Shown here piece by piece: positions 35,627 to 57,597 of a DNA stretch of 64,000 nt; the stretch's first letter is position 1, and every line of letters starts with the position of its first letter. The stretch comes from a virus. Taxonomy: Duplodnaviria > Caudoviricetes. A program made the position numbers and the translations under genes. The stretch lies in the IMG/VR virus record IMGVR_UViG_3300031555_001469, one strand, 5' to 3'. The notes below the pieces were generated by a model, which made no database searches, was not told the origin of the DNA, and saw only the letters and a list, made by a program, of their open reading frames with translations.

Positions 35627-35700
35627 TATTTCACCCCTATCTATTTAGTATTATTAATATGTATATAAACTTACTATCCCCCAAACATTTTGATAATATG

Positions 35701-35719
35701 TAATTAGCCCTATTTAGGG
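35701..35719 (+). promoter_or_regulatory. Candidate translational operator hairpin upstream of DNA polymerase part 1
   Basis: TAATT-AGC-CCTATTTAGGG between promoter motif (35684) and SD; same element precedes part 2. Confidence 0.55.
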
Positions 35720-35735
35720 ACGTATAGAAAGGAGA

Positions 35736-37853
35736 ATGATTATGCAACCATTATCAGAAATGCAAATTATTCAAAGATATAAAGAAGTAGCATTAAGAAT
35801 GCTTAGATTTAACTTCCCTACCCTTAGTATGGTAGAGTTAAATGATGCGGTAGATTATTCTATTATTAAGAGAATGAAGAATGGTCCAGCAGTAATTGAA
35901 AACAATTATAAGAAAAAGAAAGAAAATGCAACTGTATTAGAAGTAGCAGAATTTATTATTAGCTGCGAACCAATCATTACATCTAGAGGAGTTATGTTTG
36001 CTAAACATGCAGATACAGAAAATCCTCTTTATAATATGATTGAAAACTTCATACAGGCTCGTGTAAAATATAAAAAAGAAATGTTTAAGTATCCTAAGGG
36101 ATCTGAAAACTTCCAAAAATATAACATGCTTCAGTTATTAGCTAAGCTCGATGCGAACGCTATCTATGGTGCACTTGGCCAGTATGCATCGTTATATTAT
36201 AATCTTTATGTAGCAGAAAGTATTACAACTCAAGGTAGATCATGTATCGGTGCAGCGATTTTATTGTTTGAGATGTTTCTCTCAAACAATGTTAAATTCT
36301 GTAGTTTGAATGATTGTATTACTTTCATCGATAATGTACTTAGTGAAAGACCAGAAAGAAAGTATAATGATAAGGTTGTATTAGATAGAGATATTACCTT
36401 AGCAGAAGCTTATTATAAAGTAATGACAACCTCTGGTTTTGAATGGGTTCCTACGGAAAAGGAAATGATTATTGTATGGGAAATCATGAGTAAGTTAGAC
36501 CAGCAGGATTTAAATAGATTATATTATAAGAATAATTTATATTCATTTATGGATAATAAGGTTATGACAAATGCTCTTGTATATATGCTTAAAGCTCTTG
36601 AGAAACCTTACATGGATCCTAATGGAGTTCCAGAAGAGATTAAACCAGAGATGGAAGAGTTTGTAAGTTTATTAGAAGAGTACGTATATTATCATTATCA
36701 GGTTATTGATAGATTAGACAGAATCGAAATGATGCCAAGAAATATTGCTATTATTAGCGATACTGACTCTAGTATTATTACATTAGATGCTTGGTATAGA
36801 TACTGTCTTGAAAAGGTATATGATATTGATATGACAATTAAGAGACAGATTGTACAACCAATTTATAAGAATGGCGAAGATGAGTTCGGAGATAGAGATC
36901 CTATTAAAGTAATTAAGGTTGTAGAACCGAGATTAGATTACGATTTCTATAGAGACGAAATCATCGAAAAAGAAAGAACTATCAATCCAATTCAAATTGG
37001 TACTCAGGAAGGATTAAGATATTCTATTATTAATATCATGGCTCATGTAGTCGGAATCTTTGTAGTAGACTATATGAAGAGATATACAATGAATTCTAAT
37101 TCCTATGATCCTGAGACTCATAACTGTAAATTAGTAATGAAAAATGAGTTCTTATTCAAGAGAGTTTTAAATACTGAAGGTAGAAAGAACTATGCTGATA
37201 TTCAGGAGATTCAGGAAGGTAATGTAATCCCTAAGAATAAACAGCTTACTATCATGGGTATGCCTCTTGATAAAGTAGGAATTCCGAAATCTTCTAGAGA
37301 TAAACTTCAGAAGATTTTATATGAAGATATTTTAAATTGTAAAGAGGTTGATCAGATTACTGTAATTAAGAAGTTGGCAATCTTCGAAAAGCAGTTATAT
37401 AAATCTCTTATGGCTGGTTCTAAGGATTATTATAAACCAGTAACAATTAAATCTTTAGCGTCTTATGAAAACCCTATGAGAATTCAGGGTATTAAGGCTG
37501 CTATCGTTTATAACTATATTAAAGACCCTACAGCAGATACAATTGACTTGGAGGCAAGAAATGCGGTTCATATTGTTAAAGTTGATATAAATAGTAAGAA
37601 TGTAGAAAATATTAGAGATTCGTATCCTCATCAATATATGAAGATACATGAGTTATTAAGAAATAAGGATTTTGAAGGTGGTATTTCTTCTATAGCATTA
37701 CCGATGGATATTCAAGTACCGGGATGGCTTTTAGAATTCATTGACTTCGCATCGATTATCAATGATAATATAAGAGCATTCCCATTACAGTCTATTGGTA
37801 TTCATACATTAGACAATCCTAATATTAATTATTCTAATATCTTATCACTATAA
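35736..37853 (+). CDS. Family B DNA polymerase, C-terminal catalytic part (split enzyme)
   Basis: Motif [16 protein letters not shown], motif C ISDTDS, RKNY; lacks exonuclease and motif A. Confidence 0.85.
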
Positions 37854-38060
37854 CATTATAGTAAGAGAATCCCTGCCAAGGTTTCTCATTTACTCAATGG
37901 ATGCCATGTTGAGTGAATCCTTCTATGTCATAAAGTTGTGTAATAATGTTGGGACACGAGTATACCGTAGAGACTAAAATCTCTACGGTGTATTTCCGGC
38001 AAAAAATAAAAAATAAAGTTTTATTAAAGGGGATGTGGATAATTCCACATCCCCTCTTAA

Positions 38061-38306
38061 CTACTCAGCTACAACCTTATGGATTTCGTAACCAAGTTCA
38101 AGCTCTTCAGCCTGATCATAGTTAAGGAAATCCGTGAGGTCGTAATCCTCATCGGAATCTAACACCCCATGAATTTCAATATCGAAATCCTTGAGATGTA
38201 TACACTGCCCTACTTCCCGTCCAGCTTCCATCATGTAATCGGTTCCTCTGTACTCTTTACCCTCGAACTCAATTACGGTATTAACTCCAACCAATCTCTT
38301 CATCAT
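38061..38306 (-). CDS. Small acidic hypothetical protein behind duplicated promoter cassette
   Basis: 81 aa, AGGAGG SD. Confidence 0.6.
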   Translation of the reverse strand: MMKRLVGVNTVIEFEGKEYRGTDYMMEAGREVGQCIHLKDFDIEIHGVLDSDEDYDLTDFLNYDQAEELELGYEIHKVVAE

Positions 38307-38384
38307 AACAATTGCGCCTCCTCTGCGCTAGTGGCTTCTATAACCCTAAAGAGTATTACGAGTTCCTTGACTCGGATATAGAAG

Positions 38385-38425
38385 GATAAGTAATTATTTC
38401 TTCTTATCACTACTATAATATACAA
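38385..38425 (-). repeat. 41-bp exact repeat, copy 2 (early-promoter cassette)
   Basis: Identical to 29414..29454. Confidence 0.85.
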
Positions 38426-38524
38426 ATAAAATGCTGAAGATTTACATGACAAGTAGAACCTATATTTTTCTTAACTGACATAAATATAATTATCTGAATA
38501 ATCCTGGAAAGGAGGATATAGATT

Positions 38525-40642
38525 ATGGCAGTTAATCAAATGCAAAGAAAAGTTTATTATCACATGTCTACGACTAATAAAACTTTCTTAGAAATGCATA
38601 GATATTTACGAGATATCGGTATTAAAAACAACAAGTTCATGCTTGTATTATTAGACCCTGACTTAGCAGGAATAGACCCACATGACCCTAAGTTACCTAC
38701 CTATATGAAGCAGAAAGTTCTTCGAGAATGTATGTGTAACTATTGGTACTTCTTAAGAGAGTGTGTAAGAATTCCATCTTCTAAGCCAGGTGGTGATAAG
38801 TTTAGATTAGACCGTGCTAATATGGCTACTACTTTCTGTCAGGCTTTAAACCTTAATATATTCTTGGAAGAGCCACGACAGATGGGTAAGACTATCGGTC
38901 TTATTGTAAGATATTTATATCTGTTTAACTTTGGTACAAAGAACTCTGAAATGGCATTCTTGAATAAGAGAATGGATGACTCCAAGTTAAACTTACAACG
39001 TTTTAAGGATATCAGAGATGCATTACCTCCATACCTGCAAATGAAACAGCAGTTCAATATGGAAGGTAAAGCTATTCGATCACCTAATACAGTAGAATCC
39101 GTACAGCATCCTATCAATAACAACAGAATCAAGGTATACCCTTCTGCAAGAAATAAGGTTGCAGCTGCATCCCTGCTTCGAGGTCGTACATTACCATTGA
39201 TCTGGTTCGATGAGTACGCATTCATTCCATTTAATAATATCATTTATACTAACGGTGCTCCTGCCTTCAAGACAGCTTCCATGAATGCTAAGATGAATGG
39301 AACACCTTATGGTATTACTATTACAACAACACCTGGCTTCTTAACAGAAGATGAAGGTATTGAAGCTTATCAGCTTAAAGAGGCTGCTACCCCATTCAGT
39401 GAAATGTGGTACGATATGCCTTATAATGAGTTGATGACATTAATTGATGCTAATACGAAGTCTAACTTTATTTATATTAAGTTTACGTATCAGCAGTTAG
39501 GACGAGATGAATCTTGGTTCCGTGACATCTGTAGAGATTTACGTATGCAATGGACAGACATCCGTCGAGAAGTATTACTTGAGTGGTCTAACTCTGTTGA
39601 AAATTCTCCGTTTAGACCAGAAGATCTTGAAATTATTTCTCAGCTTGTTAAGAAACCTATCAGACAGGTATTATTCTTAGGCAAGTACTTATTTAATATC
39701 TACGAAGAAGTTAATTTGAAATATCCACCTATTATCGGTGTCGACGTTTCTGGTGGCTTTAATCGAGACTCATCTGCAGTTACTTGTGTAGACTCTAGGA
39801 CTACAAGAGTATTCGCAGACTTTAACTGTAACTATATTCCTACTCACGATTTAGCTCAATTGATTTATGAATTGGTATCGAAATATATGCCGAATGCAGT
39901 AGTCAATGTCGAGCGAAACGGTGGTTATGGTGCATCTGTTTTAGGTAAACTTGTTGGTTCTCCAATTAAGAAGAATCTTTATTATGAAATTAAAGATAAA
40001 GTCTTAGAGGAACGACAGCAAGGTACTAAGATTATTAAGAAAACACAACCTACTAAGGTATACGGATTAGACTCTACTAAGTCAGTCAGAGAATTGCTTA
40101 TCCAGATTCTTAGAGAACGTGTTGAATATCATAAAGATAAATTCGTATCCGAAACTATATACCATGAATTAATGGGTATGGAAGTTAAGAGAAATGGTAG
40201 GGTAGACCACTCAGCTAATACTCACGATGACCAGACATTCTCTATGCTTATGGCTCTTTATGTATGGTATGAAGGTAAGGATCTTATGTCTAGATTCGGA
40301 ATCCAAAAGGATACTATCAGAACGGATGAAGACATCGATGAAGTAATCTTAGGTGGTTTTGAAGAAAGATATGGAGATATCTTAGAAGAAATTGAAAATA
40401 TAGAATCTGGTTCTGAGATTAATGAACAGCTGAAAGAAATGCATAAAGCAGCTGGTACATTATTTGAAGACTGGATGAGATCAGAATGGGCTAAGGACCA
40501 GGCTGCATATCAGGAATTGATGAATAATAAAGTTGCTAGACAGGCTATGGCTGAAGCTAAAGGTATTCCAGCAGATAGTTTAGCAGAATCACCATTCTAT
40601 CAATTACCTGATAATATTTATACAAATTTCTATAGTGAATAA
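38525..40642 (+). CDS. terL: Terminase large subunit
   Basis: PRQMGKT Walker A, WFDEYAF Walker B, ITTTPG, IIGVDVSGG, HDD nuclease motifs. Confidence 0.9.
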   Translation: MAVNQMQRKVYYHMSTTNKTFLEMHRYLRDIGIKNNKFMLVLLDPDLAGIDPHDPKLPTYMKQKVLRECMCNYWYFLRECVRIPSSKPGGDKFRLDRANMATTFCQALNLNIFLEEPRQMGKTIGLIVRYLYLFNFGTKNSEMAFLNKRMDDSKLNLQRFKDIRDALPPYLQMKQQFNMEGKAIRSPNTVESVQHPINNNRIKVYPSARNKVAAASLLRGRTLPLIWFDEYAFIPFNNIIYTNGAPAFKTASMNAKMNGTPYGITITTTPGFLTEDEGIEAYQLKEAATPFSEMWYDMPYNELMTLIDANTKSNFIYIKFTYQQLGRDESWFRDICRDLRMQWTDIRREVLLEWSNSVENSPFRPEDLEIISQLVKKPIRQVLFLGKYLFNIYEEVNLKYPPIIGVDVSGGFNRDSSAVTCVDSRTTRVFADFNCNYIPTHDLAQLIYELVSKYMPNAVVNVERNGGYGASVLGKLVGSPIKKNLYYEIKDKVLEERQQGTKIIKKTQPTKVYGLDSTKSVRELLIQILRERVEYHKDKFVSETIYHELMGMEVKRNGRVDHSANTHDDQTFSMLMALYVWYEGKDLMSRFGIQKDTIRTDEDIDEVILGGFEERYGDILEEIENIESGSEINEQLKEMHKAAGTLFEDWMRSEWAKDQAAYQELMNNKVARQAMAEAKGIPADSLAESPFYQLPDNIYTNFYSE

Positions 40643-40747
40643 AATAATTGAGGGAGGTCTTAATTGACCTTCCTCGATTTAATCGGCTGTACATCTTTAA
40701 CCATTTATAGACATTGTAGTAATTATACCGAATAGGAGGTTAAAGAT

Positions 40748-41503
40748 ATGAGTGTAGCTCAAAATAATCATATTTTTAATATAGTATCTGAAAACCAGAT
40801 TGCTACTATTTTAAGTCATTTTAATAGTGACTATATTATGAGCTCAATAATTGAGAAAATAAATTCAAGAAATTTTTATTCTATGAATAACCCTAATGTA
40901 GTTTATTCATATGAATTGAATTTCCAGCAGATTAAATATTATTATCCTACGGATGTACAAAATATTGACTCTGTGAGAATGCAAACATTTCAGGAAATAA
41001 TTGACATTTTATGCTCGCATCATGGTCTTGCATTTAACGAAGATATGCAGATTGATTATTATAGTGCAGCATACTATATGTATGATTTCTTAGTTGCGAA
41101 TTTCTTCCCACATATTATAAGTTTCTTTGTTAAATACTTAGTGGCGGAGAAAACACGACTATACGAATATATAATTTCTAGAGGAACTGATAGAGATATG
41201 GGATACTCTAGGAAAATATATAAAGATAATAAGATTGCTACAATTAGTAGTAACTTAGATATCGCTTTAGACTATATCAAAGGATTAGATATTCCTTTGA
41301 ATGTCATTATTAGTTCTTTATACCCAGCTGAGATTGCTAGTTTCTTAAATCAGATTATAGCACCAGTTGGTGATTTTTATAAAGATATATATGTGGCAAC
41401 TTTTAACAATCCACTTATGATGCCTGAAATTATAACTGGTATTAGGTTAGAGTTACAGGCTAAGTATGGAATGGAAATGTTACCACCTATACAGAATAAT
41501 TAA
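40748..41503 (+). CDS. Hypothetical protein
   Basis: 251-aa ORF with AGGAGGT SD. Confidence 0.65.
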   Translation: MSVAQNNHIFNIVSENQIATILSHFNSDYIMSSIIEKINSRNFYSMNNPNVVYSYELNFQQIKYYYPTDVQNIDSVRMQTFQEIIDILCSHHGLAFNEDMQIDYYSAAYYMYDFLVANFFPHIISFFVKYLVAEKTRLYEYIISRGTDRDMGYSRKIYKDNKIATISSNLDIALDYIKGLDIPLNVIISSLYPAEIASFLNQIIAPVGDFYKDIYVATFNNPLMMPEIITGIRLELQAKYGMEMLPPIQNN

Positions 41504-41523
41504 TTAAATGGAGGATTCAGAAC

Positions 41524-42666
41524 ATGAGTACATTAAATGAAGAAGATTTAAAGAATGTAACAGAAAAGCTTAACATCGAAGGTGTTACGCCTGTAGAGGT
41601 TAATGCTAAGGATGCTGTACCTGAAAGACTTGAGGGTACTTTAACAGAAAAGCAGCTTGATAAAATTGTAGAAACTTTAGAAGCTAATAGAGAGCAGTTA
41701 CCAGAAGCTGGTGTTATTGAAACAGCTACTGGGGAAATTTTAGAAGAAGATACTCTTTTAATGAGTTCTGATTCTGAGACAGGTGTTCTTTCTTTTGTAC
41801 CAACTGCTGAAGATACAGAGAAAGCGACAGAAACTTTTAAGGATGCATTCGGTGCAACCGATGAAGATATGCTCGAATTACTTAATGTAATTCGTAGACA
41901 TAAAGCTGGTGAAAAGTTTAGTATTTATAATGCTTTACCTGAGTGCTTTAAGAAGGCAGTTAAAGTTGTCGTTCATAGTCAGGGTGGAGATAGAAGACAT
42001 TATAATACAGTAGCTAGAGAGTTTATCGTAGAACAGTTTATTCAGAATGAGGAAATGAATAATGCTTTCGATTCTTTCAATAGAGAATTAGAAGGTATTT
42101 ATGATGAGATTCCTACTATGTCTGATATGTATGCTGATACTCTTTTTGAAGCTATGACAACAGAGCTTGAAAAGAAAGCTGAATTAGTTAAGGATTCTAA
42201 TCCTGAAGCAGCTGAGAAGCTCTTAAAGATCCGTGATACATTTGCAGATACTTATGAGTTCAAATCTATTAAGGAATTCATTGCATCTAGAAAGTACTGC
42301 GGTAGAGTAGTAAAGACTCGTAAAAAGAATAAGTTTGCTGATGAAATGAAAGATTTTAATTTCTTAATTTCTAAGAGTGATTTATTCAAGTGGCCTGATG
42401 TAACAGGTATCAAGGATATCTTGCTTAGAAAGCTTGGTACTGATTATGAGATTCAGATTGAAGTATTCTTACTTAATCTGTATTACTCTAGATTAGGCAT
42501 TGATCTTAGTGATGTATATGAAGCAGAGTATACATATTATATTCTGAGAAATATTGTAGCATTAGATTTTGCTGAAGGTAACTCTAACTTCAACAAAACA
42601 CTGGTAGAGAATCTTGAAGGTTTAATGAAGTTTATCATTGATGAATTTTCTACAGAAGAAGCTTAA
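41524..42666 (+). CDS. Hypothetical acidic protein
   Basis: 380-aa ORF with GGAGG SD. Confidence 0.65.
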   Translation: MSTLNEEDLKNVTEKLNIEGVTPVEVNAKDAVPERLEGTLTEKQLDKIVETLEANREQLPEAGVIETATGEILEEDTLLMSSDSETGVLSFVPTAEDTEKATETFKDAFGATDEDMLELLNVIRRHKAGEKFSIYNALPECFKKAVKVVVHSQGGDRRHYNTVAREFIVEQFIQNEEMNNAFDSFNRELEGIYDEIPTMSDMYADTLFEAMTTELEKKAELVKDSNPEAAEKLLKIRDTFADTYEFKSIKEFIASRKYCGRVVKTRKKNKFADEMKDFNFLISKSDLFKWPDVTGIKDILLRKLGTDYEIQIEVFLLNLYYSRLGIDLSDVYEAEYTYYILRNIVALDFAEGNSNFNKTLVENLEGLMKFIIDEFSTEEA

Positions 42667-42740
42667 AAACAATCCCCCATTGCCGTGTATAGGCAATGGG
42701 GAACATTTTATTAAAATATATGAAAAAGGAGGCTAATATT

Positions 42741-45700
42741 ATGGGTGAATTAGTCAGCATTTCTGCTAAATCTGCAGAGCAAGTTACATTATGTTTATCA
42801 TCAGCAGATATTGGTAGGAAATATATTACTTTAATTGAAGGAAATACCTATAAAGTAAAATATATATATTCAGGAGAAGATAGAGAATTTATAGGTAGAC
42901 TTGTTGATGTAGTTGAAATCCCAGGACAAAAATTTATTTTATCTCGTACTGGTAAAACTTACAATTTATTATTTGACCCTGTAGATGATGGTACAGATAG
43001 TGTACGTGTATGGGTTACAACAATTGAACTCAGATATATTGAGTTATATGCTGAGAAAAAAGAAGAACCTGTCATTTCAGAAGAAATGATTAAGGATGCA
43101 ATTAATGAATATTTTGAAGAAAATCCTATTGAAAATGGAATAATACCTGAATTTAAAATAGGCACTATAGAAACATTAGAAGCTGGTTCTAATGCTACTG
43201 TTTCTATTACTGGTAATAATAGTAGTCCAATATTGAACTTTGGTATACCTAAGGGTGATACTGGCGAAGATGGAGCCGTCGGTCCAGCAGGTAAAGACGG
43301 TGTAGATGGAAAAGACGGAGCTACCGGCCCAGCAGGTAAAGATGGTGTAGATGGAAAAGACGGAGCTACCGGCCCAGCAGGTAAAGATGGTGCTGATGGA
43401 AAAGACGGAGCTACCGGCCCAGCAGGTAAAGATGGTGCTGATGGTAAGGATGGAGCAGCCGGAAAATCCGCATATCAAATTGCAGTAGCTAATGGATTCG
43501 ATGGTACTGAAGAACAGTGGCTCGAATCTTTAAAAGGAGAAAATGGAGAAGATGGTATTACCCCACAAATTAAAATAGGTACAGTAGAAACATTAGAAGC
43601 TGGTTCTAATGCTACTGTTACTATAACAGGTACAGCAGCTAACCCAGTTTTGAATATTGGAATCCCTAGAGGTGCCGATGGAGCAGCTGGAGAAGGAACT
43701 GCTACTTTACCTAATTTTACTATAGGTACTGTAGAAACTTTAGAATCAGGATCTGATGCTACAGTCGCAATTACCGGTACAGCGGAAAATCCTGTGTTAA
43801 ATCTTGGTATCCCTAAAGGTGCTACTGGTCCAGCGGGTAAAGATGGTAAGGATGGAGCTGCAGGTGCTGATGGTAAAGATGGAGCTACTGGTCCAGCGGG
43901 TAAAGATGGTGCTGATGGTAAGGACGGTGTGACTCCTACATTCACTATAGGTACTGTTACTACATTAAGTGCTGGATCTGAAGCTACTGCTACAATAACA
44001 GGTACGGTAGAGAATCCAGTGTTAAATCTTGGTATTCCTAAAGGTGCAACTGGATCTTCTGGAGAGTCTTCGGGTGAATCTTCTGGTACAGTACCAGAAG
44101 GAGTTACTTATGTAGATCTCGATGATTCTGAAGATATTGGTGAAGTTGAAGAAGGAGTCGATGCTGATAGATTAGGTGGTAGATTACCAAGCTACTATAT
44201 CAATATTGATAATTATCAGAAGTATTTAGATACCAATATAGGAGCCGATTTCTTAACTTCTGAAGGTCATGGTAATTTAAGATTCTTAGATGGTGTATTC
44301 CAATATTTTAATCAGGAAACTTCTGAGTGGGTAGATGCTGTGATTACCCCTCAGAATGTTTATGTAATGAATATGATACCTCAAACTATGAAGAGTATTA
44401 GTGCAATATATGATATTAAATTAGGTAGGAATAAATTAAAATGGGAAGAGCCGGCTGATACTATAATAGAAAATCAAGCAGCGTGCCTTGTAGAAAAGGT
44501 TATTATTAGACGTAAACTAGGTGAAGCCCCTAGTAATGAAACTGATGGTGAACTAGTTATTGAAGTTAGACGAAATCAGTTTGGTTTATATAAAGATGCT
44601 TATTATGTAGATGATGCTATTACTCCTAGCACTGGAGAAATATGGTATTATAAAGCGTTTCCGATGAGTACCACGGAGTTATATAGTTATTCTACTTTAA
44701 ATGAAACTAGTGCTTTATGTAAAGATTATTATGAATTCGGATTTAGAATCGATCAAACTGAATCTGATCCTGCTAGTATGATTACTTATGTAGGTGATAA
44801 TGAGAAATATCAATCTGCATATATGGATTATACAGCAGATACTTTTAATTATGGTGATTGGACAGTTGATAGCGGTGCTTGGTTTATGAATGTTAGACCA
44901 TGTATGCTTAATTATGATGGAACCGTGGCATATTATCTTGATCCAAATAATTACACATTAAAAGAAGATGGAACAGCTTCTGATATAGCTAACTCTGAGT
45001 TTGCTGGAAATGCTATGGTAGAGATACCTAAAGTATACTATAAGTGTGTAAATATATCCGATGATGTAGCAGAGTATTATTTTAGCAGCAGAAAACTTGA
45101 TGATGATTATCATTGCTGGAGCCACATAGATGCTAATGGTAATGAAATTGATTATTGTTATATGCCTTGTTATAATGGGGCTAATGTCAATAGTATATTG
45201 AGAAGTATTAGTGGGTTAACCCCTCTCCATACAAAAGCATTTGATGTACATGTACAATATGCTTTAGCTAATAATCTTGAAGGAAGTAATATATGGCAAA
45301 CAGAGGTATTTTCGGATAGAATGTTGATAAATCTACTAATAATGCTTATTGGTAAATCTACAGACGTTCAAACTGTATTTGGAAATGGATATATTAGTGG
45401 AGATTCGTCTAATACTTCTTCTAGAATGAATAATGGTACAATGGACGATAAAGGCTTATTCTGGGGGAGCAGTGATAAATCAAAACTTGGCGTTAAAGTT
45501 TTTGGTATGGAAAACTGGTGGGGTAATCAGAATAAATATATTAGCGGATATGTAGTCTCCTCTAATGCTCATTTAATAAAATTGACATATGGGCAGTATG
45601 ATGGATCTACATGTGATGGTTATAACTCTACAGGTGATGGATATATTACAATTAATGATACAATTGCATCAATAGGGACTAATGGCGCTTATGTAACTAA

Positions 45701-47769: not shown

Positions 47770-47788
47770 ATAAAAGGAGGAATTTATT

Positions 47789-48175: not shown

Positions 48176-48179
48176 TGAT

Positions 48180-48365: not shown

Positions 48366-48446
48366 TCAATTATAAGATATGATCCCCGTTACCATAAAAG
48401 GTAACGGGGGAACATTTTATTAATTAAAGAAAAGGAGGTTAATACC

Positions 48447-49001
48447 ATGAGTACATTAACTAAAATTTATACTAAACCTATAGTAAAAATTGAAATGGGT
48501 TTGACTTTTGAACTTGATGAAGAAAAAGTAGTTATTCTCGAAGAAGGATTATTGTATAGAGTACAGTATGTAGCACCTAATAATTCTGGAGATTCTACAA
48601 ATGTTTTAAAGGAAATAGTAGGCAGAATATCTAAGATAGATAAGGTACCTGCTAGAGGAAACTTCAATCCATTCTATAACGGTGATATCTATAATATCAC
48701 TTTTGATTGCTCTGTAGAATTTTTCTCAACTCAAATTATAGTACCTACAACACAGATAAGAGATATCGATCTCTATATAATTTCTAGTGAGGAGGAAGAA
48801 GATAATGGAGAAGGAAATTCTGGCACTGATGGCGAAATTTCTGGGGATGCAGGCAACACAGAGGAGAATATTACCCCAGGCATTAACGGAGATGAAACAG
48901 GAACAGGGCCAGAATCTGGTAATGGAGAATCTGAAGAAACTGATGGAACTACAGGAGAAGGAGACGGAGGTTCTGAGGGAGATGATGTCCCTACTGAATA
49001 A
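48447..49001 (+). CDS. Putative virion protein sharing an N-terminal domain with the collagen fibre; acidic Gly-rich tail
   Basis: LEEGLLYRVQY...GRI...YNITFD...QIRDIDLY versus LIEGNTYKVKY...GRL...YNLLFD...ELRYIELY. Confidence 0.5.
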   Translation: MSTLTKIYTKPIVKIEMGLTFELDEEKVVILEEGLLYRVQYVAPNNSGDSTNVLKEIVGRISKIDKVPARGNFNPFYNGDIYNITFDCSVEFFSTQIIVPTTQIRDIDLYIISSEEEEDNGEGNSGTDGEISGDAGNTEENITPGINGDETGTGPESGNGESEETDGTTGEGDGGSEGDDVPTE

Positions 49002-49040
49002 TTCCGAAGAAACTTCTGTAGAGTAAAGGAGGTTTTATAA

Positions 49041-49775
49041 ATGGCAATCCCATATTTTTTAAAACAAGATGGAGATGCTTTATTATTTAATCAGGATAAA
49101 GGATACTTACAATTCTTTGTACCTGAAAAGTTTTTCGAAACTAAAAAAGCTATCGTGGTAGGTGAATATGTAAATCTCATTGGTATATTAGACTATACTA
49201 TTTATGATGGTGATGGAAAGAATAATGGATTAAAACCATTTAGATTTCCTACTATCTTTTTAGCTAAGCCAGGTGAGATTGAAAAAGTAAGAGATATTCA
49301 GCTTACTAAATATACAGATAGGCAGGATTACAGATTATTAAAATTCTTTAAAGGTGATGCTGTTGTGGTATCTACTAAGGTTCCTAAGGGTGTAAGCAAC
49401 GTAGAGGAATTCTTTAGAATTATTACAGGTGGTACTTTACCTAGAATCAGATATGATGTAATTCATGAATACTTTAGTGAAAATGCAGAATTAAATGGCT
49501 TTAAATATGGTGTATCTTCTCAGATGCTTGGTATCATTGTATCTGAATTATGTAGAGACCCTAACGATTTATCTAAACCATTTAGATTAGCTAAGATTGA
49601 AGATATGACTGGATATAAAACAATCAATATCGAACAGATTCCGTATTATATTTCACCATATACTTCTATTACAAATATTAACTGGGATAAGGCTGTAGTG
49701 AACGCTTGTTTATTGCCTGATGGTAAAGAGTCGCCTCTTGAGAAGGTGCTTACCGAGTCAGTTAGTTTAACATAA
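49041..49775 (+). CDS. Hypothetical protein upstream of tail sheath
   Basis: 244-aa ORF, AAGGAGGT SD. Confidence 0.55.
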   Translation: MAIPYFLKQDGDALLFNQDKGYLQFFVPEKFFETKKAIVVGEYVNLIGILDYTIYDGDGKNNGLKPFRFPTIFLAKPGEIEKVRDIQLTKYTDRQDYRLLKFFKGDAVVVSTKVPKGVSNVEEFFRIITGGTLPRIRYDVIHEYFSENAELNGFKYGVSSQMLGIIVSELCRDPNDLSKPFRLAKIEDMTGYKTINIEQIPYYISPYTSITNINWDKAVVNACLLPDGKESPLEKVLTESVSLT

Positions 49776-49837
49776 TGATAAAAGTCTATTAGAATAGGCT
49801 ATATAAGCAAAATAAATTTAAAAAGGAGGAAACTAAT

Positions 49838-51658
49838 ATGTATCCTGGTTCTAAATTTGAAATTGTAGATCAGAGCTTAATCGAACAGATACCACAGCAG
49901 GAACCTATTATGAAGCCAATGTTCATGGCAGCATTTACTTCTGATAAGGGAAGTGAAGAGTATGGTGTTTATTCTGGCGATGATTTCTTTAAACAGTTCG
50001 GAACTGATATTAAGTTTGCTAACCATGGTCAGCCTTTACTTCAGGCAGCTATGGCAATTAAAGCAGGCGCTAGATTATACTGTAAGCGTATGGTAGCAGA
50101 TGATGCTACTTTAGCTAACCTTATTCTCGCTGCAACTGTAACTAAGACAAATACACAGAAGACAGATGCTGCTGGTAACTTAGTTTACGTTACTACAAGT
50201 GGCGAAGAAACTACGGAAGCAGAAGGAAATACAGCAGTTATGCTTTCCGGAGCTGCTATTTCTTATAGCATGACTAGTATACCTAGCATCAAGTCTATAA
50301 GTGAAGCAAAGGCTCAGGCTACTGCATTATATACTTCTAAAGAAAATTCTTGGACTTTCCCTATCGCAGTATTTACTGATAACGGTAGAGGTGTTTCCAA
50401 GAAGAGAATTCGTATCGAAGCAGATTATGCTAACAGCAAGTCTGTTGATTACTGCAGATATACTCTGTATGTAATGGAGGGCAATAGTGTCCTCGAACCT
50501 ATCGGATTTACTTTTAATCCTGATATTGTTTATGACGGTGCAAACACATCTCTTGGTAGTGTTGTAGAAACTAAGTCTGGTCAGATTAAGGCAGACGTGT
50601 TCGATGCTTATATTCTTGAGATGTATGACAAAGTTGCAGAATTAGCTGGTCTTGAAACTGACTATCTGCTTCTTCAGGATATGGTATTTGGTAAGACAAA
50701 GAATGGTACTGTAATCAATACAATTACAGTTACTGATGATATTGATCTTGCTGCGACCTATGGTTTTACCTTTGCTAATGGTACCAATGGTTCCTTTGGC
50801 ACAGCACCTATTAACTCCCCTCAGTATGGTTCTATCTTAGCTAGAGCTTTTGATGGTTCCTTATCTACTGAGATTTACGATCTTGATAATCTCAAGATGT
50901 ATGCTATCGTAGATGCTAACTACCCAGCTGAAGTTAAGAGACAGATTGAGAAGTTAGTTGAATTCAGACAGGATACTTTCTATTTCAGAGATCTTGGTAC
51001 TGGTTTAACAACTCTTACTGACATTCTCGAAGCAGATGGATTTGGTTCTAAGAGCATGTTTAGTGGTTCTTACCACAACAGTTACGACATTATTGATCCA
51101 TTTACTAAGAAGCAGATCACAGTAACAGTAGGTTACCATATTGCTCAGCTTCTTGTAGATCATATCAATAATGGTGTAAGTAGACCATTTGCTGGTCTTC
51201 TTTACGGTGTTACATTCCCTGATATTATTGATGGTACTATCAACTTCATTCCTACTATTACCCCAGCTGGTAACCAGAAGGAAAAGTTAGATGATGCTAG
51301 AATCAACTATATTGGTTACTATGATGGAACACCTGTTATGGAAACAACTTATACATCTTATGAAAAGTACTCCACTTTATCTTTCCTTCACAACGTAATG
51401 AATATTCAGGAACTCATTAGAGCTATCCGTTCTAAGTGCCCTAAGATTCGTTATCAGTTCAGTGAAGCTGAAGATCTTGCTAAGTACCAGGAAGATGTAC
51501 AGTCTGTAATCGATAAGTTTGTTACGAACTTTGCTGAAGTTACTCTTGAGTATTACGCTGATGAACGCTATGAAGCCAATAATATCTACTATGCAGGTCT
51601 TAATGTGCGTACTAAGAAGTTCATCCAGTCTGAATACTTCAAGGTAATTGTATTATAA
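49838..51658 (+). CDS. Tail sheath protein
   Basis: MYPG start; FTSDKG; D..RINYI, LS.LHNVM..Q..IR C-terminal sheath pattern; AACA-N6-TA at 49769. Confidence 0.8.
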   Translation: MYPGSKFEIVDQSLIEQIPQQEPIMKPMFMAAFTSDKGSEEYGVYSGDDFFKQFGTDIKFANHGQPLLQAAMAIKAGARLYCKRMVADDATLANLILAATVTKTNTQKTDAAGNLVYVTTSGEETTEAEGNTAVMLSGAAISYSMTSIPSIKSISEAKAQATALYTSKENSWTFPIAVFTDNGRGVSKKRIRIEADYANSKSVDYCRYTLYVMEGNSVLEPIGFTFNPDIVYDGANTSLGSVVETKSGQIKADVFDAYILEMYDKVAELAGLETDYLLLQDMVFGKTKNGTVINTITVTDDIDLAATYGFTFANGTNGSFGTAPINSPQYGSILARAFDGSLSTEIYDLDNLKMYAIVDANYPAEVKRQIEKLVEFRQDTFYFRDLGTGLTTLTDILEADGFGSKSMFSGSYHNSYDIIDPFTKKQITVTVGYHIAQLLVDHINNGVSRPFAGLLYGVTFPDIIDGTINFIPTITPAGNQKEKLDDARINYIGYYDGTPVMETTYTSYEKYSTLSFLHNVMNIQELIRAIRSKCPKIRYQFSEAEDLAKYQEDVQSVIDKFVTNFAEVTLEYYADERYEANNIYYAGLNVRTKKFIQSEYFKVIVL

Positions 51659-51676
51659 TAAAGGAGGTAGAATTAT

Positions 51677-52495
51677 ATGTTTGAGCATTTGGCACAGCCT
51701 CGTGATATTACCTCTAAAACACTTATGAGAGGTACAGCAGACTTTGGTAACTTAAATCAGTGGCACTTATATGAAAGCGGTTATTCCGTTCTCGTAGTAT
51801 GTAAGATCCCTAAGATTTTAGAGTTACTTGCAACTAGCAATGAAAAGTATAAGATCCTGATTAATAACTATAAGCATATTCTTGAATATGAATTTAGAGG
51901 TATTACAGGTCTTGAAGATATGACAGCTGAAACCGGTGAAATCACCGATGGTATCAATCAGCTTCAGATCATTAATAAGGTTACAATGCAGTCCGGAAGT
52001 ACATTTGAAATGAGATACTGGGAAAAAGCTGGTTCTACTATTACAAGAGTACACGAACTGTATTTGAGAAGTATCAAAGACCCAAGAACTCAGATTAAAC
52101 ACTACGGTGGATTAATCGAAAAGGGCTTGGTGGACTTAGACGATATCGGATATGATCTTGAAACTTTCTCCTTATTGTATTACGTAACAGATAATACAAT
52201 GAGAAAGGTAGAAAAGGCATACTTCATCGTTGCTGCACAGCCTAACAAGGCGGAACTTTCTATCTATGAATCTGAAAAAGGTAGTATCGAATTCAAGGAA
52301 GTCGGCGTAAGCATGAATGGATTCCCTATTACTGGTAATGCAATAGATCAGAAGGCTCAGGAACACCTTGACTGGTTACACAATGCTAGCAATCCAAATA
52401 AGCTTATAGCTGACTCTACAGAGTTCAACTATACTGGTATTAGCGAAATCGGTGCTAAGATTAACGCTGAAAAGAACGCTGCTGGTGTAGAGTAA
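51677..52495 (+). CDS. Tail tube protein
   Basis: 272 aa directly after the sheath; beta-rich; followed by terminator. Confidence 0.65.
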   Translation: MFEHLAQPRDITSKTLMRGTADFGNLNQWHLYESGYSVLVVCKIPKILELLATSNEKYKILINNYKHILEYEFRGITGLEDMTAETGEITDGINQLQIINKVTMQSGSTFEMRYWEKAGSTITRVHELYLRSIKDPRTQIKHYGGLIEKGLVDLDDIGYDLETFSLLYYVTDNTMRKVEKAYFIVAAQPNKAELSIYESEKGSIEFKEVGVSMNGFPITGNAIDQKAQEHLDWLHNASNPNKLIADSTEFNYTGISEIGAKINAEKNAAGVE

Positions 52496-52501
52496 TAAAA
52501 G

Positions 52502-52528
52502 ACCCCTTAGGCTAATTGCCTAAGGGGT
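52502..52528. terminator. Bidirectional terminator
   Basis: ACCCCTTAGGC-TAATT-GCCTAAGGGGT between convergent genes. Confidence 0.75.
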
Positions 52529-52537
52529 TGATTTTGT

Positions 52538-54808
52538 TTATTCTTCACCATTACCTGATTTGATTGATAATCTTGTAGCTTCCTGTTTAGACTCTTCAAT
52601 GATTCTATCAATTACACCCATATTAAAATATGAGCTCATATAATAAATCTTGAGTTTCTTATTAGCTATAAGCTTTACATTCTCATCAGGTTCATCAGCT
52701 AATACAATATTAGAAATCGCTTCAACGAATTCATTTGTATTAGTAATAATCTGATTGGTATTTGTAATATTAAGGAACAAAGGTGGCTGTAAGGTTACAT
52801 TGATATTAGAGTTTGAATTGTACTCAATATTGTAAATCTTACTGATGAGAGGATTTAATAAATCTTCATATCTACTTTGTCTATTATATACCTTTCTTAA
52901 GAACTTACTGTTTGTCATAGTAAGCTGTACAGCATAATCAATAGATTGTCTAGCCTGAATTAATTCAATAGGGATATCAGTTGAGTTGATTGCCATCTCT
53001 TCTAATTCTCTTAAGAACTCAGGTTTAGTATCTATCTGCTGACCCTGCATAACTTCGAACTGCACTGGACTTTCACCAGATGCATTTACTGGAATTACAT
53101 AGTCATTAAATCTACCAACCATATTAAGCATAGTATTAATAGACTGAACCTGTCTAACTCCGAAGTTACCTTTCTTGATCTGCTCAATTGTATTAAGCAG
53201 AGTCTTAGAAATGTTTGTTTCGACCTGCTGCTTTACATAGTACACTCTCTTATCCTGTCCTCTAGTCATCTGTGCGATTGCTAAAGTAAGATATAAAGAT
53301 ACATAAAGAATAGCAGGAATAAATGCTTTCTCTAAATCAGATACACCATGATGTGTTTTCTTATCCTTCTTCCAGTAGATATGAGTCATATCTTCAGGAG
53401 GAATAAAAGAAACTCTAAGAGGCTGACCTGAATTATAGAGATCGTTGTATTTAAGAATCATATAAATCTCTTTAGACATATCCTGATTCATATTAATAAA
53501 TTTGCTATCGATAAACTGGGACATACTACTTGCAACATGTTTGAGTAAGTTATCCTGTTTACTAGTTTCTACATCAGCAGAAACCATGGTATTAGTAGAA
53601 CCTGTCATTCCAGGAATGCTACTAGTTGTACCCTTAGCCATTGTAGAGTTTACTGGATCTCTAGGATCTTTTTCAGCAAACTCAAAATAATAATATCCTA
53701 AACAAAGATCTTCAATATAGATAGGAACTACATGAGATCTTTCTAAAGTTTTAATTACACATCCTCTAGTAATTAATTTGATCTTTGGATCTTTTTCTCT
53801 AGCAGATGTATTAACTAAACCGTCAGAGCTAGTATCATCAAATCCGTTGAAATCTAACTCATCATCAATCGTCTTATCAAACGATTTCTTATTTCTCTTC
53901 TCTGGTTCTAAATCCTCTTCCCCCATAGATTCTTGGAAAGATCTATATACAGAAGATTCCATAATAGAAGCCATTTTAGAATTTACTGTTTTTGTTTCAT
54001 ACACAGCATCTTCAATAATACCAGAAAAGTTCAACTCTAACTTAATCTCTGGTATTTTGGTATCTCCAAAGTTTTCCTTTGGTTTACCCATTTTAAAAAC
54101 ATCTCCAGACTCAGTTACAATCTGTGCATGTTCCTGCCTAACGTAAGCGGTCTGAGAAGTATTTGCTTTGTTTTTAAGCAATTTTTCTAATGCTTTAGTA
54201 TATGGCACACAGTATACGAACTGTTCACCATACTTACTTGCAGAATCGTACCAAGTCTCAATTTTTTCTTCTAATTGATACTTGTTTTTCATTTCAATAA
54301 TTCTTGTAAAGAATGTAGCTTCATCAGTAGTACTGTTTCCCAAATCTTTAATATTAAGAAATTCTTTAGAGAAATGATCCGCAGATAATACATTGTCTTT
54401 TCTTGTATCAAGAGCTTCAACAAGTTTAGGCATGTATTTACAAATGGTATCAATCTCTCTATCCAATTCAACTAAAGATTGATTCTGAAATACTACTTCT
54501 GTTAACTGGCTCATTAAATCTTCATTTTCAAATAGCTCTCCCATCTTCTTGCTTGTCTGAGGATCTTTAGAGAGTTCAAGAATTTTACTGTATAATGAAG
54601 ATATATTTGGCATTCCGGTATTCAGAGTATTATTGGCTGTTATATTGGAGATAGATCTATTAATATCATTCTTGATATTTTCTAAATCTCTCCGGTTCTT
54701 TGGAGACGCATAATATGTGCTAGTATAGAGTGAATCTAAACTAGTTCTTATCGCTTTACCTAAAGAATTTATAATATTGCTATTATTTTTCTTTTCTTTT
54801 TCTGCCAT
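52538..54808 (-). CDS. Portal protein (T4 gp20-like)
   Basis: GVSDLEKA, QMTRGQDKRVYYV, DYVIPV...FEVMQGQ; AACA-N6-TA at 54835-54846 on minus strand. Confidence 0.7.
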   Translation of the reverse strand: MAEKEKKNNSNIINSLGKAIRTSLDSLYTSTYYASPKNRRDLENIKNDINRSISNITANNTLNTGMPNISSLYSKILELSKDPQTSKKMGELFENEDLMSQLTEVVFQNQSLVELDREIDTICKYMPKLVEALDTRKDNVLSADHFSKEFLNIKDLGNSTTDEATFFTRIIEMKNKYQLEEKIETWYDSASKYGEQFVYCVPYTKALEKLLKNKANTSQTAYVRQEHAQIVTESGDVFKMGKPKENFGDTKIPEIKLELNFSGIIEDAVYETKTVNSKMASIMESSVYRSFQESMGEEDLEPEKRNKKSFDKTIDDELDFNGFDDTSSDGLVNTSAREKDPKIKLITRGCVIKTLERSHVVPIYIEDLCLGYYYFEFAEKDPRDPVNSTMAKGTTSSIPGMTGSTNTMVSADVETSKQDNLLKHVASSMSQFIDSKFINMNQDMSKEIYMILKYNDLYNSGQPLRVSFIPPEDMTHIYWKKDKKTHHGVSDLEKAFIPAILYVSLYLTLAIAQMTRGQDKRVYYVKQQVETNISKTLLNTIEQIKKGNFGVRQVQSINTMLNMVGRFNDYVIPVNASGESPVQFEVMQGQQIDTKPEFLRELEEMAINSTDIPIELIQARQSIDYAVQLTMTNSKFLRKVYNRQSRYEDLLNPLISKIYNIEYNSNSNINVTLQPPLFLNITNTNQIITNTNEFVEAISNIVLADEPDENVKLIANKKLKIYYMSSYFNMGVIDRIIEESKQEATRLSIKSGNGEE

Positions 54809-54897
54809 TTATTAATCAACTCCTTTCGTTAATTTACTTGGATGTTAAGGTTTTTAAACAATAGAGGGAGGAGTAGGTATTATCCTACTCCTCCGAT

Positions 54898-55506
54898 TTA
54901 TAACGTTAAGAATTTAATATATACCTCAATAAAGATTTTCTTTTTCTTTACTATTGTAAATCTAGATATGAAGTATCCGATACTATCATAAACAGACAAT
55001 AGTAAATCATCAGACTTTGTTACTGATAAGACATTTGATGGTATATACATTTTGTGTCTTTCGTCAACCTGTACACCAATAGCTCCATCAGCAGCCTTAG
55101 AGGATAAGAATGCTTCAATGAAGTCTAATCCTCTTAGGCTACCAAAGTTTACAGATGACATGTCTACATGATATTTCAACTCCAAGTACTTATTATAAAT
55201 CTGTCTTGTAGTGAAATTTGATGGTACATATTCGCACTCAGACATTTTAGCATAGATTCTATTATTATCAAATATAATTTCATCCGTTGGTAACAATGTT
55301 TTTCTAAATGCTATAACTGCTGTATACGATGCTGTAAATGTAAGCTCTGGATATATAAAATTCTCAGAAGCATTTACAACTTTAATCATACATAATCTTG
55401 CATCATAACCCATTACAACACCATCATAGTATGCAATGAAGTCAGAACGAACCATTTTCATATATTCGATCAATTTATCAAACTGATCTATACTAATTTT
55501 CGTCAT
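54898..55506 (-). CDS. Hypothetical protein coupled to the DNA polymerase exonuclease part
   Basis: 202 aa; overlaps the stop of 55493..57424. Confidence 0.6.
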   Translation of the reverse strand: MTKISIDQFDKLIEYMKMVRSDFIAYYDGVVMGYDARLCMIKVVNASENFIYPELTFTASYTAVIAFRKTLLPTDEIIFDNNRIYAKMSECEYVPSNFTTRQIYNKYLELKYHVDMSSVNFGSLRGLDFIEAFLSSKAADGAIGVQVDERHKMYIPSNVLSVTKSDDLLLSVYDSIGYFISRFTIVKKKKIFIEVYIKFLTL

Positions 55507-57424
55507 TATAAAATACCTCCATTACTTCTTTTATTAATGGTGTTTTATAAGATATAATAGGTCTTCTTGTTTTTTCTATACTAATAGGCTTAATCCCTCC
55601 AAGTTCTGGATTAATCTTTCTAATAGGACAGAAAGATCCATCTTCATTAAAGAACTTAGGAGTTCTACAACTATTAGCAACAGTGTTAAAGTATTCAATT
55701 ATATCATCATAAAGGTCTTCATATCCACCAAGATGTAACCATCTCTCTGCAAATTCTAAATATACATGAGATTGTAAATCTTCCATGAACTGACCTTCTC
55801 TAGAATACTTTTCATCCTTTCTTCTATTTTCACCTTCATAGACTTTTTGTGGGAAAATTACTTTACCTATCTGAGTATTAGGAGCAATATTAAACTCCTG
55901 TAAAATACTTGGATACAGTCGAGCATAGTCAAAGTCATCAAGGTTATCGAATAACATAACTGGAACACCATTGATTTTCATCTTTGGTATATCAGATATA
56001 TTAAGAGGATCTGCTACGAAAGCACCAGGATACTTTTCGGTTGGTTTAGGATTTCCCCTATTAGTATTATTACCAATAATATATCCCTGCTCGTAGAATT
56101 CAATCATACCTCTATTCGCTAAATAAACTGTCTGTCTATGACATTTTGCATATCTAGTACAGTTTGTTATACATTTATTAAATACATAATCTATATCACC
56201 AGCCTTAACTTCAATACACTTCTGTACAATTGTATCGACAATGTTGTACATTACAAATGTCTTATAATCTAAGTATGGTAATTTAGCTAATTCAGTAGTG
56301 ATATGAGAATAGTCTAATTTCTTAGCTCCTGCTATAACGCCACCGATATAATTTAAACTAAATGATGTGAATGCAGATTGCCCTTTTCTTCTTGAAGCAA
56401 ACTGAATCATCTGGTCTAAGTATACAGAATAAGAAGATACTTTACAGAAATCTCCTCGTTCAGCAAACTCATTCTTGTGTAATTCATCAACGAAGTATTC
56501 GCATACCTTTCTATCGAAATCCGGATGACAAATTATATCTACAGGATTATATCCTAACTTCTTAATTCTAGCAATAATGTATGGCATATCGAACGCCATG
56601 TTCCATGCTAAAACAAAGTCTGGCTTAATTGTATTAATCATAATAAACAAATCCTGAATCAATTTGATTTCATCTTGCTCATTATAAAAATACATATTAA
56701 ATTTATAATCAGATACACCCAATCTTTTAGCTTGTTTGTAACCACCAACAGTTTTGTTGATAAGTTCCTGAAGCTCTTTGAAGAATGTGCCATTAACACT
56801 CTGCTCAAATTCTTTAATAAGAGGATTCTTATCATTTCTTAAAAGCAAAGTATGAATCTCATTTCTAGCATCATCAATCAATGTAATCGCGTTAATTGGA
56901 GCTTCACCTGGCTCAGGGAAGTCTCCTACAATATCAATTACATCGGCTTCTATATCGAAATATGCTTTTGTTACAGGTACGTTTCTATTCTGATACATCT
57001 GAGAGAATCTAAATCTAATATGATCTTCAATATGTGTATCAGAGTTAAACACATCTACGTGTTCATGAAGAATTCTATTTTCTCTTCTATTTCCATTCTT
57101 TATATTATCAAAGTAGAAATTAAGATTACCGGTTCTTTCTGCAATATCTTTTTCTAATTCGATATATGGTACTTCAATTCTTTCAGCATCTTCTTTCTTT
57201 ATGAAGAGCCGATTATGTTCTTGACTTTTACCCTCTTTAGCCATATAGTATACATATGTAGGGTTTTCAATTTCAGTCATAACTTTCTTATTATTTACAT
57301 TGTCTTTGGCTACGATTGTTATAGCCCCCGAATCCCACCTTCCTGTGGATTCATTCTTTCTAGGATAATGATATATTGTATTAAGTATAGTAATGTCACT
57401 TCCCTGTTCATATCCTGGTATCAT
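55493..57424 (-). CDS. Family B DNA polymerase, N-terminal 3'-5' exonuclease plus motif A part (split enzyme)
   Basis: ExoI YFDIEAD, ExoII AWNMAFDMPYI, ExoIII YNIVD, YPGAFV, motif A DFDYARLYPSI. Confidence 0.85.
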   Translation of the reverse strand: MIPGYEQGSDITILNTIYHYPRKNESTGRWDSGAITIVAKDNVNNKKVMTEIENPTYVYYMAKEGKSQEHNRLFIKKEDAERIEVPYIELEKDIAERTGNLNFYFDNIKNGNRRENRILHEHVDVFNSDTHIEDHIRFRFSQMYQNRNVPVTKAYFDIEADVIDIVGDFPEPGEAPINAITLIDDARNEIHTLLLRNDKNPLIKEFEQSVNGTFFKELQELINKTVGGYKQAKRLGVSDYKFNMYFYNEQDEIKLIQDLFIMINTIKPDFVLAWNMAFDMPYIIARIKKLGYNPVDIICHPDFDRKVCEYFVDELHKNEFAERGDFCKVSSYSVYLDQMIQFASRRKGQSAFTSFSLNYIGGVIAGAKKLDYSHITTELAKLPYLDYKTFVMYNIVDTIVQKCIEVKAGDIDYVFNKCITNCTRYAKCHRQTVYLANRGMIEFYEQGYIIGNNTNRGNPKPTEKYPGAFVADPLNISDIPKMKINGVPVMLFDNLDDFDYARLYPSILQEFNIAPNTQIGKVIFPQKVYEGENRRKDEKYSREGQFMEDLQSHVYLEFAERWLHLGGYEDLYDDIIEYFNTVANSCRTPKFFNEDGSFCPIRKINPELGGIKPISIEKTRRPIISYKTPLIKEVMEVFYNDEN

Positions 57425-57443
57425 GGTTATACCTCCTAAACTG

Positions 57444-57462
57444 CCCTAAATAGGCACAATTA
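57444..57462 (-). promoter_or_regulatory. Candidate translational operator hairpin upstream of DNA polymerase part 2
   Basis: Minus strand TAATT-GTG-CCTATTTAGGG between AACA-N6-TA (57467-57478) and AGGAGG. Confidence 0.55.
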
Positions 57463-57597
57463 TATTTATTTAAATGTTTTTGATATAATATTTTTCAACA
57501 TATAAGTAAGGATGTGGTTATAAATAAATTTCATGTTTTTCTCCTTATTATATAAAACCCCGTAGAGAATAATTCTCTACGGGGGATAGATTGTTAA

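Follow-up and report, generated by a model that had tools for sequence, protein, structure and literature searches.

A dyad element shared by the leaders of both halves of a split DNA polymerase, with a third copy upstream of the replicative helicase, in an AR9-like giant phage

Both halves of the split family B DNA polymerase of an uncultured AR9-like giant gut phage (IMG/VR record IMGVR_UViG_3300031555_001469; 229,764 bp, 33.6% G+C) carry in their leaders a common 27-nt dyad, TAATT-N3-CCT-N4-AGG-N4-TTTAG, which begins at +6/+7 from the predicted transcription start and is predicted to form a hairpin next to the Shine-Dalgarno sequence (SD). Judged from its sequence and distribution, the element is real, specific and conserved, within the bounds of one narrow lineage. 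Its hairpin, the new part, is not limited to the polymerase: a further copy was found upstream of the gene for a DnaB-like helicase. The element probably co-ordinates the expression of the polymerase halves and the helicase, and co-ordinate control of replisome genes appears to be the best reading of the sequence evidence. We tentatively favour an action in RNA, as an mRNA hairpin beside the SD. The window is the whole 64,000-nt stretch that was analysed, bases 10741-74740 of the record, and positions below are those of the window unless stated otherwise (Table 1).

Results

The shared element in the two polymerase leaders

An earlier note on this DNA described an identical hairpin leader in front of the genes for the C-terminal (PolC) and N-terminal (PolN) polymerase halves. 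Both leaders read as it described, at 35684-35735 (+) and 57478-57425 (-), and the predicted fold agrees with its short 11-mer stem with an ATTT loop just 5' of the SD. The hairpin is common to both leaders; identity is too strong a word for the rest, as the two agree at 34 of 45 aligned bases. The PolC start, which the note placed at 35736, had to be moved to the ATG at 35742 on the grounds of the SD spacing and of the 703-aa database protein P0001, to which PolC is 100% identical.

The 11-mer core, CCTATTTAGGG, has two exact copies in the window and in the whole 229,764-bp genome, at 35709-35719 (+) and 57454-57444 (-), and the genome-wide exact-match search proposed in the note accordingly returned the two polymerase leaders and nothing else. 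No variant of the core with up to two mismatches was found in a comparable leader context in the genome. Counted from the predicted transcription starts, the core begins at +15 and +14, and it lies 33 and 30 nt before the start codons. The view that no other gene has the hairpin held for the exact core and failed for a degenerate copy before the helicase gene; this sole further site belongs to a related gene, and the motif was not found before unrelated ones.

Words of this length are commonly shared through promoters and SDs (in 229 pairs of upstream regions the longest exact match was 11 nt, mostly a promoter or SD word), therefore all upstream pairs were scored by alignment. Composition-weighted local alignment of 144 upstream regions, all against all, placed the polymerase leaders at rank 43 of 10,296 pairs, and the pairs ranked above them were mostly copies of repeated promoter cassettes. 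The two leaders are mutual best partners by about 10 bits (35.1 vs at most 24.8). Rfam gave no match at E up to 1 in the PolC leader and, upstream of the PolN leader, two sub-threshold chance hits only, near a terminator. The exact motif plus SD was matched 65 times across IMG/VR, never beside a polymerase gene, and all these matches were regarded as chance.

Table 1. Positions of the polymerase genes, their leader features and the motif shared by the AR9 and BpSp polymerase leaders
Feature	Position	Strand	Basis
Late promoter AACATTTTGATA of PolC; predicted transcription start A 35695	35684..35695	+	AR9 late consensus match
PolC element TAATTAG-CCCT-ATTT-AGGG-ACGTATAG	35701..35727	+	Predicted hairpin; 40.3 bits with covariance model R1; conserved in L147, L148, L073
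PolC core stem, loop 35712-35715	35708-35711 with 35716-35719	+	Predicted hairpin
PolC SD AGGAG (35730-35734) and ATG (35742-35744)	35730..35744	+	7-nt SD-to-ATG spacing
PolC, C-terminal catalytic palm/thumb half, 703 aa	35742..37853	+	Pfam DNA_pol_B, divDNApol
Late promoter AACATTTAAATA of PolN; predicted transcription start A 57467	57467..57478	-	AR9 late consensus match
PolN element TAATTGTG-CCT-ATTT-AGG-GCAGTTTAG; core 11-mer 57454-57444	57436..57462	-	Predicted hairpin; 37.4 bits with R1; conserved in L149, L150, L077
PolN SD AGGAGG (57437-57432) and ATG (57424-57422)	57422..57437	-	7-nt SD-to-ATG spacing
PolN, N-terminal half, 643 aa; 3'-5' exonuclease and start of polymerase domain	55493..57424	-	Pfam DNA_pol_B_exo1, DNA_pol_B
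202-aa gene	54898..55506	-	Open reading frame (ORF) map; 14-nt overlap with PolN end
Shared leader motif, AR9 NC_031039.1	110096-110110, 127095-127108	-	
Shared leader motif, BpSp KT895374.1	158571-158582, 169261-169273	-	

Conservation among relatives

The leaders were compared with those of polymerase variants of at least 90% identity (L147 and L148 for the C-terminal half, L149 and L150 for the N-terminal half), of a relative at about 86% (L073, L077) and of one at about 70% (L076, L078). An ENA contig from an 84% relative (L082), with a 5'-truncated gene and unrelated upstream sequence, and P0122 (86% relative), a protein only, were left out. At polymerase identities of at least 85% the element is kept in 8/8 leaders, this phage included, and in both halves. 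The CCT and AGG arms are invariant in them, the loops read ATTT, ATTC, GTTT or AAAT, and the outer pair of the core is C-G in four leaders, U.G in two, U-A in one (L150, CUCCU-GUUU-AGGAG) and G.G in one. The stretch from promoter to start codon is 80-93% identical, which matches the coding sequence, and identity is 56-80% over the next 70 nt upstream.

The conservation that the note expected in related phages was thus borne out by the close ones; in the relative at about 70% both leaders can still be aligned and the hairpin has decayed in both, and in three relatives at about 50% (G001-G003) there is no trace of the element. Each lineage examined has either kept it in both leaders or lost it from both. 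The idea that shared leaders are a general trait of split polymerases was rejected, as the leader pair ranks 11,014/11,628 in G001 and 7,005/17,205 in G003; in G002 (IMGVR_UViG_3300045988_100350) it ranks 217/14,535 through a match of SD and spacer only. The SD plus spacer of the two G002 polymerase leaders, AGGAGGAATTAGG, is identical.

A third copy upstream of the replicative helicase

A covariance model, R1, was built from the eight polymerase leaders. On the phage's own genome it recovered the two training sites and then G000:C1:116626-116652 (-), outside the window, at 20.7 bits (E ~0.06). This copy lies 89 nt 5' of the gene for a 578-aa DnaB-like replicative helicase (Pfam divDNAB, DnaB_C), a homologue of AR9 gp007, and two relatives that had no part in the training (L155, L156) have it in the same place, at 32.0 and 23.8 bits. 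In a control scan of 1.07 Mb from four AT-rich jumbo phages, AR9 among them, a single hit reached comparable strength; it falls inside a coding sequence of G002, on the opposite strand and about 270 nt from the helicase start, and was judged to be chance.

In the three helicase copies, the six columns that vary all belong to those variable in the polymerase copies, and the 13 invariant columns are untouched (chance ~0.02), which suggests that the same constraint is still acting there. With the third copy before the helicase gene, the element marks core replisome genes (PolN, PolC and helicase) and not the polymerase alone. The helicase copy directly follows a 12-bp intrinsic terminator, with the AACA late promoter of the helicase about 60 nt downstream of it; the copy would therefore enter the helicase mRNA via read-through only and could act on read-through transcription alone. 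Its SD-like remnant, TTTAGGAAG, is followed by no start codon and has decayed to TTTAGAGAA in L155. Between this copy and the helicase late promoter lies a 16-nt block, CTTCTAAAAATTGGGA (G000:C1:116605-116620, -), which is identical in all three phages compared (this phage, L155 and L156).

The late promoter layer

In Bacillus phage AR9, the non-virion RNA polymerase recognizes the late consensus AACA-(N6)-TA/G, the final base of which is the transcription start (Lavysh et al. 2017, PMC5312081). The promoters before the polymerase halves have the same motif and spacing and explain no more of the shared leader than its initial 12 nt; the starts in our phage are predicted ones. The note counted AACA-N6-TA as part of the leader shared by the polymerase halves; it is not specific to them, since the extended form aAACAT..N..TAa is found upstream of about 45-60 genes, and the motif lies 19-47 nt 5' of the start codons of many genes. 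Genome-wide, late-promoter matches with a start 15-60 nt 5' of a same-strand start codon were 46/271 vs 6.1 expected (p ~3e-26). A tblastn search aimed at the beta and beta' subunits of the AR9 non-virion RNA polymerase gave homologues of beta' C-terminal, beta C-terminal and beta N-terminal. The motif match, the enrichment before genes and the RNA polymerase subunit homologues together identify AACA-N6-TA, at the level of sequence, as the generic late promoter of an AR9-type non-virion RNA polymerase. The leaders of the polymerase halves, 43 and 47 nt long and structured, stand apart from the other late leaders, most of which measure 19-35 nt and have little predicted structure.

A candidate early promoter of the virion RNA polymerase, TATATTAT-N5-TG, resembles the AR9 early motif (examples at 33176, 38422 and 29451 (-)), and its copies up to 150 nt upstream of called genes are all on the minus strand of the whole genome. 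It is present in neither polymerase leader, and an origin of the shared TAATT from this promoter was rejected. For the AR9 polymerase genes, g132 and g152, the mapped promoters are early ones, which give leaders of 99 and 78 nt, and no late start is listed (Tables S2 and S3, PMC5312081); in our phage, by contrast, no early-type TATATTAT promoter stands directly upstream of either half.

Two side observations concern late promoters. The UvsX-like recombinase gene (window coordinates 73237-73300, -) and a small gene at 171261 have a common 16-nt promoter variant, ACCTAAACAGGGACAT, the second site of which is at window coordinate ~171200 (+), outside the window, and which contains a CCT-AAAC-AGG mini-palindrome by itself; weak hits of the covariance model at 73270-73297 (window coordinates, E ~4) overlap this UvsX promoter and were judged chance. 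A 22-codon ORF with a good SD (57466-57534, -) ends at the PolN transcription start and overlaps the PolN promoter; its frame is broken in L150 and it is probably not a gene.

Predicted folds of the leaders

When four leaders were folded together with adjoining coding sequence, each minimum-energy structure contained the hairpin; the RNAalifold consensus is the same hairpin, predicted in all eight leaders at 20-33 nt before the start codon. The core CCU/AGG tetraloop hairpin can be extended by AU and G.U pairs into an outer helix that ends 1-4 nt before the SD. Folded alone, 5/8 leaders have an alternative minimum-energy structure, in which CCU pairs with the true SD; it lies 0.5-3.7 kcal/mol below the best fold with a free SD. 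An extended helix of 11 pairs was considered and dropped: 76-80% of its cells pair, and shuffle controls were non-significant.

Genomic setting and neighbouring features

Bacillus phage AR9 is matched by 48 proteins of the phage, among them a UvsX-like recombinase and a DNA ligase, and the family B DNA polymerase is split in two in AR9 fashion. PolC is 27% identical to the AR9/PBS1 catalytic subunit, and PolN is 33% identical to AR9 g132; the two genes of split jumbo phage polymerases lie tens of kilobases apart, and in our phage they are on opposite strands. About 1,400-1,600 related metagenome proteins were found, mostly at 45-60% identity, so the phage represents one lineage in a large uncultured group.

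The 202-aa gene overlaps the end of PolN and would therefore be served by the PolN leader. A gene of 202-203 aa directly follows PolN in every relative, and a Pfam search of it gave no match; in AR9, RNase H occupies the position after the N-terminal half. On the other side of PolN, between a divergent gene at 57858 (+) and the PolN promoter, there is a tRNA-Met (57597-57672, -) with its own AACAGGGATATA promoter, followed by a strong hairpin terminator (unit 57553-57723, -); tRNA-Met and terminator are also present in relative L077.

Further gaps were seen in polymerase genes of other phages. The C-terminal half of G002 matches as two pieces about 460 nt apart (68345-70846), and in BpSp (KT895374.1, 156522-158535) the annotation divides the N-terminal half into two coding sequences with 280 nt between them; an intron or intein, or else a further split, may lie behind these gaps.

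A cassette of about 115 nt, made up of the early promoter TATATTAT-agtagTG, the hairpin GATAAG..CTTATC and a GC-rich SD region, is repeated before at least six small genes that are unrelated to each other; its copies have exact stretches of up to 29 nt in common. Copies were found in the window at 29340-29461 and 38307-38432 and outside it before genes at window coordinates 86025, 143152, 168276, 170703 and 204964. One copy lies between PolC and the next gene.

Discussion

The explanation that we tentatively favour, on the strength of predicted folds and the pattern of conservation, is that the element acts in the mRNA. An AR9-type non-virion RNA polymerase would read the generic AACA-N6-TA late promoter, and both polymerase mRNAs would then bear UAAUU-N3-CCU-N4-AGG-N4-UUUAG from +6/+7. 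Such a common 5' structure on replisome messages could set translation initiation and perhaps mRNA stability. The CCU arm may serve as an anti-SD that pairs either with the nearby AGG, which leaves the SD free, or with the real SD, which closes it, and a shared trans-acting factor could tip the balance between the two states. Matched expression of the subunits would be a sensible aim, as the split polymerase of PhiKZ is a 1:1 complex (PMC13648687). We consider it rather doubtful that the hairpin on the PolN, PolC and (by read-through) helicase mRNAs is read by a dedicated trans-acting factor, which might be the polymerase complex or a different protein of the replisome and would so couple their synthesis to replication demand, with the motif AACTAAA..ATTGAT of AR9 and BpSp as an independently evolved counterpart.

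Several observations weigh against an action in RNA. Covariation is non-significant, and shuffled alignments equalled the observed score in 97-208 of 500 trials; a single fully compensated change was seen, at the outer pair of the core (U-A in L150), and the inner stem is conserved in sequence without covariation, which a protein-DNA site would explain just as well. The folding energies of whole leaders are unremarkable (z-scores -0.8 to 0), and the alternative fold that closes the SD is missing in 3/8 variants. The starts at 35695 and 57467 are predicted positions. The helicase copy could not occlude the helicase SD, and its inclusion in the mRNA needs read-through. Finally, the decay or absence of the element at about 70% and 50% identity means that it is dispensable for split polymerases in general. 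As the sequences stand, there is too little covariation to choose between an RNA hairpin and a DNA operator.

The element could instead be a DNA operator, a 26-bp dyad TAAT-N4-CCT-N4-AGG-N4-(A/T)TTA bound by a dimeric phage protein, which would place the replisome regulon under timed control at the level of transcription; we regard this as a serious rival, if a somewhat less likely one. A protein bound at +7 to +33 would block the non-virion RNA polymerase, and one bound behind the helicase terminator would block read-through. The blocks TAA/TTA and CCT/AGG are invariant at dyad-symmetric columns in 11 copies, with freely varying spacers and centre, and covariation is never seen in the inner stem. 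The flipped centre of L149 (AAAT) would be harmless in a symmetric site, and the helicase copy, being outside the transcript from the helicase's own late promoter, fits a DNA site as well as, or better than, an RNA site. However, the half-sites are short, and the asymmetries at columns 5/22 and 8/19 are mostly T/G, which pair in RNA and break the symmetry of DNA: G.U keeps 9/11 copies paired on the sense strand vs 5/11 on the antisense strand. The invariant G at column 27 likewise breaks the dyad, and the A-to-G change of L073 disrupts the CCCTA/TAGGG palindrome yet falls in the RNA loop. The dyad is centred near +20 for each polymerase half vs about -60 from the helicase late promoter. A non-exhaustive literature search (PMC5312081, PMC7598289) gave no transcription factor for AR9-type non-virion RNA polymerases, and no candidate binding protein was identified in a search aimed at RegA only. 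A third account dispenses with any trans-acting factor and takes the leaders for a duplicated promoter-leader module, kept by similar, modest expression in cis or by descent, with the helicase copy as a displaced relic. The genome demonstrably copies such cassettes, as the 115-nt family illustrates; the remnant TTTAGGAAG without a start codon and its decay in L155 look relic-like, and the SD and spacer regions differ between the polymerase leaders, so that initiation is not matched by sequence identity. We nevertheless find it unlikely, since the helicase copies vary only at columns that vary in the polymerase copies, the three carriers are exactly core replisome genes, and the element is retained or lost jointly in both leaders of a lineage.

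The earlier note proposed a shared operator of the T4 gp43 type, in which the assembled PolN-PolC complex would bind the hairpin on its own two mRNAs and repress their translation. The motif, its place next to the SD and its conservation in close relatives agree with a shared operator, and the layout, in which a hairpin 20-33 nt 5' of a family B polymerase start codon has its base beside the SD, is similar to that of T4 and RB69 (PMC3014915). That both subunit mRNAs bear it, and the 1:1 complex of PhiKZ, speak for the same idea. The constancy of the loop and the restriction to polymerase genes that it implies were not found: loop bases, critical for gp43, vary among phages with polymerases at least 90% identical, and a third functional-looking copy stands before the helicase gene. 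There is also no sequence likeness to the T4/RB69 operators and no match to an Rfam family, and some T4-like polymerases have no autoregulation (PMC3014915). Strict autogenous control therefore seems improbable to us, and the helicase copy suggests a regulon-type regulator or a DNA site instead. Chance resemblance of two AT-rich leaders, which might be suspected from the 229 upstream pairs with an equally long word and from a non-significant window-level test with one mismatch allowed, is very improbable: the word is neither promoter nor SD, is unique to the two leaders genome-wide, stands at nearly the same offset from both transcription starts, is conserved in both leaders of relatives, and recurs before the helicase.

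If a dedicated factor does read the hairpin on the replisome mRNAs, it would govern the first gene-specific regulon to overlie the programme of the sigma-less non-virion RNA polymerase in AR9-like jumbo phages. The temporal control of these phages has so far been explained by two promoter classes, to which the element would add a gene-specific layer for the replisome. How the halves of a split polymerase are kept in balance is a question raised by 1:1 complexes encoded by genes tens of kilobases apart, and the element, with 27 nt, three copies and known natural variants, is a small and testable target.

Among known systems, a similar layout is that of the operator of T4 and RB69 gp43, which binds a hairpin of 16-18 nt upstream of its own SD; the loop bases decide binding and read UAAC or UAAA in T4, RB69 and RB49 (PMC3014915). 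In both cases a family B polymerase mRNA bears, in its 5' untranslated region (UTR), a hairpin close to the ribosome binding site and a few tens of nt from the start codon. The stem-loop here has a core of 12 nt, or up to 26 nt with the outer pairs, and in contrast to the gp43 operator its loop may be AUUU, AUUC, GUUU or AAAU among close relatives, and its targets are three genes including the helicase, not the mRNA of the polymerase alone. Because of the variable loop, the missing sequence likeness and the helicase copy, we do not class the element as a gp43-type operator.

The T4 RegA regulon offers the other parallel, one recognition element across the messages of several replication genes, here polN, polC and dnaB. 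RegA sites in T4 are unstructured, AU-rich and overlap the start codon, unlike the predicted hairpin. By analogy, a RegA-like regulon logic would suit three targets better than strictly autogenous control. A search of this genome for RegA itself (PF01818) gave no match and was uninformative, as the control genomes were silent too.

A second case of a motif common to both polymerase halves was met in AR9 and BpSp, where both 5' UTRs carry AACTAAA-N1-3-ATTG(A/T)T (loci L083, L084, L151 and L152). We found no published description of it. In AR9, the leaders of g132 and g152 share AACTAAA-N1-2-ATTGAT-N-AATA..TTG.GAGGAG at 36-39 nt before the start codon and rank 40/13,695 as a pair; a looser pattern has nine matches genome-wide, three of them intergenic, namely the two polymerase leaders and one in a terminator-like hairpin before the primase gene. 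BpSp has two further matches beyond both polymerase leaders. The motif is not a mapped late promoter, and it differs from the element described here in sequence, in having no GC hairpin and in having no copy before the AR9 helicase. Two lineages, then, that of our phage and that of AR9 and BpSp, each have their own motif common to both halves, and three others (G001-G003) lack a convincing shared leader motif. In published RNA-seq tables the transcript levels of AR9 g132 and g152 are nearly equal (14/122/292 vs 17/104/257). As AR9 can be cultivated, the parallel motif opens the idea of co-ordinated expression of split polymerase halves to laboratory test.

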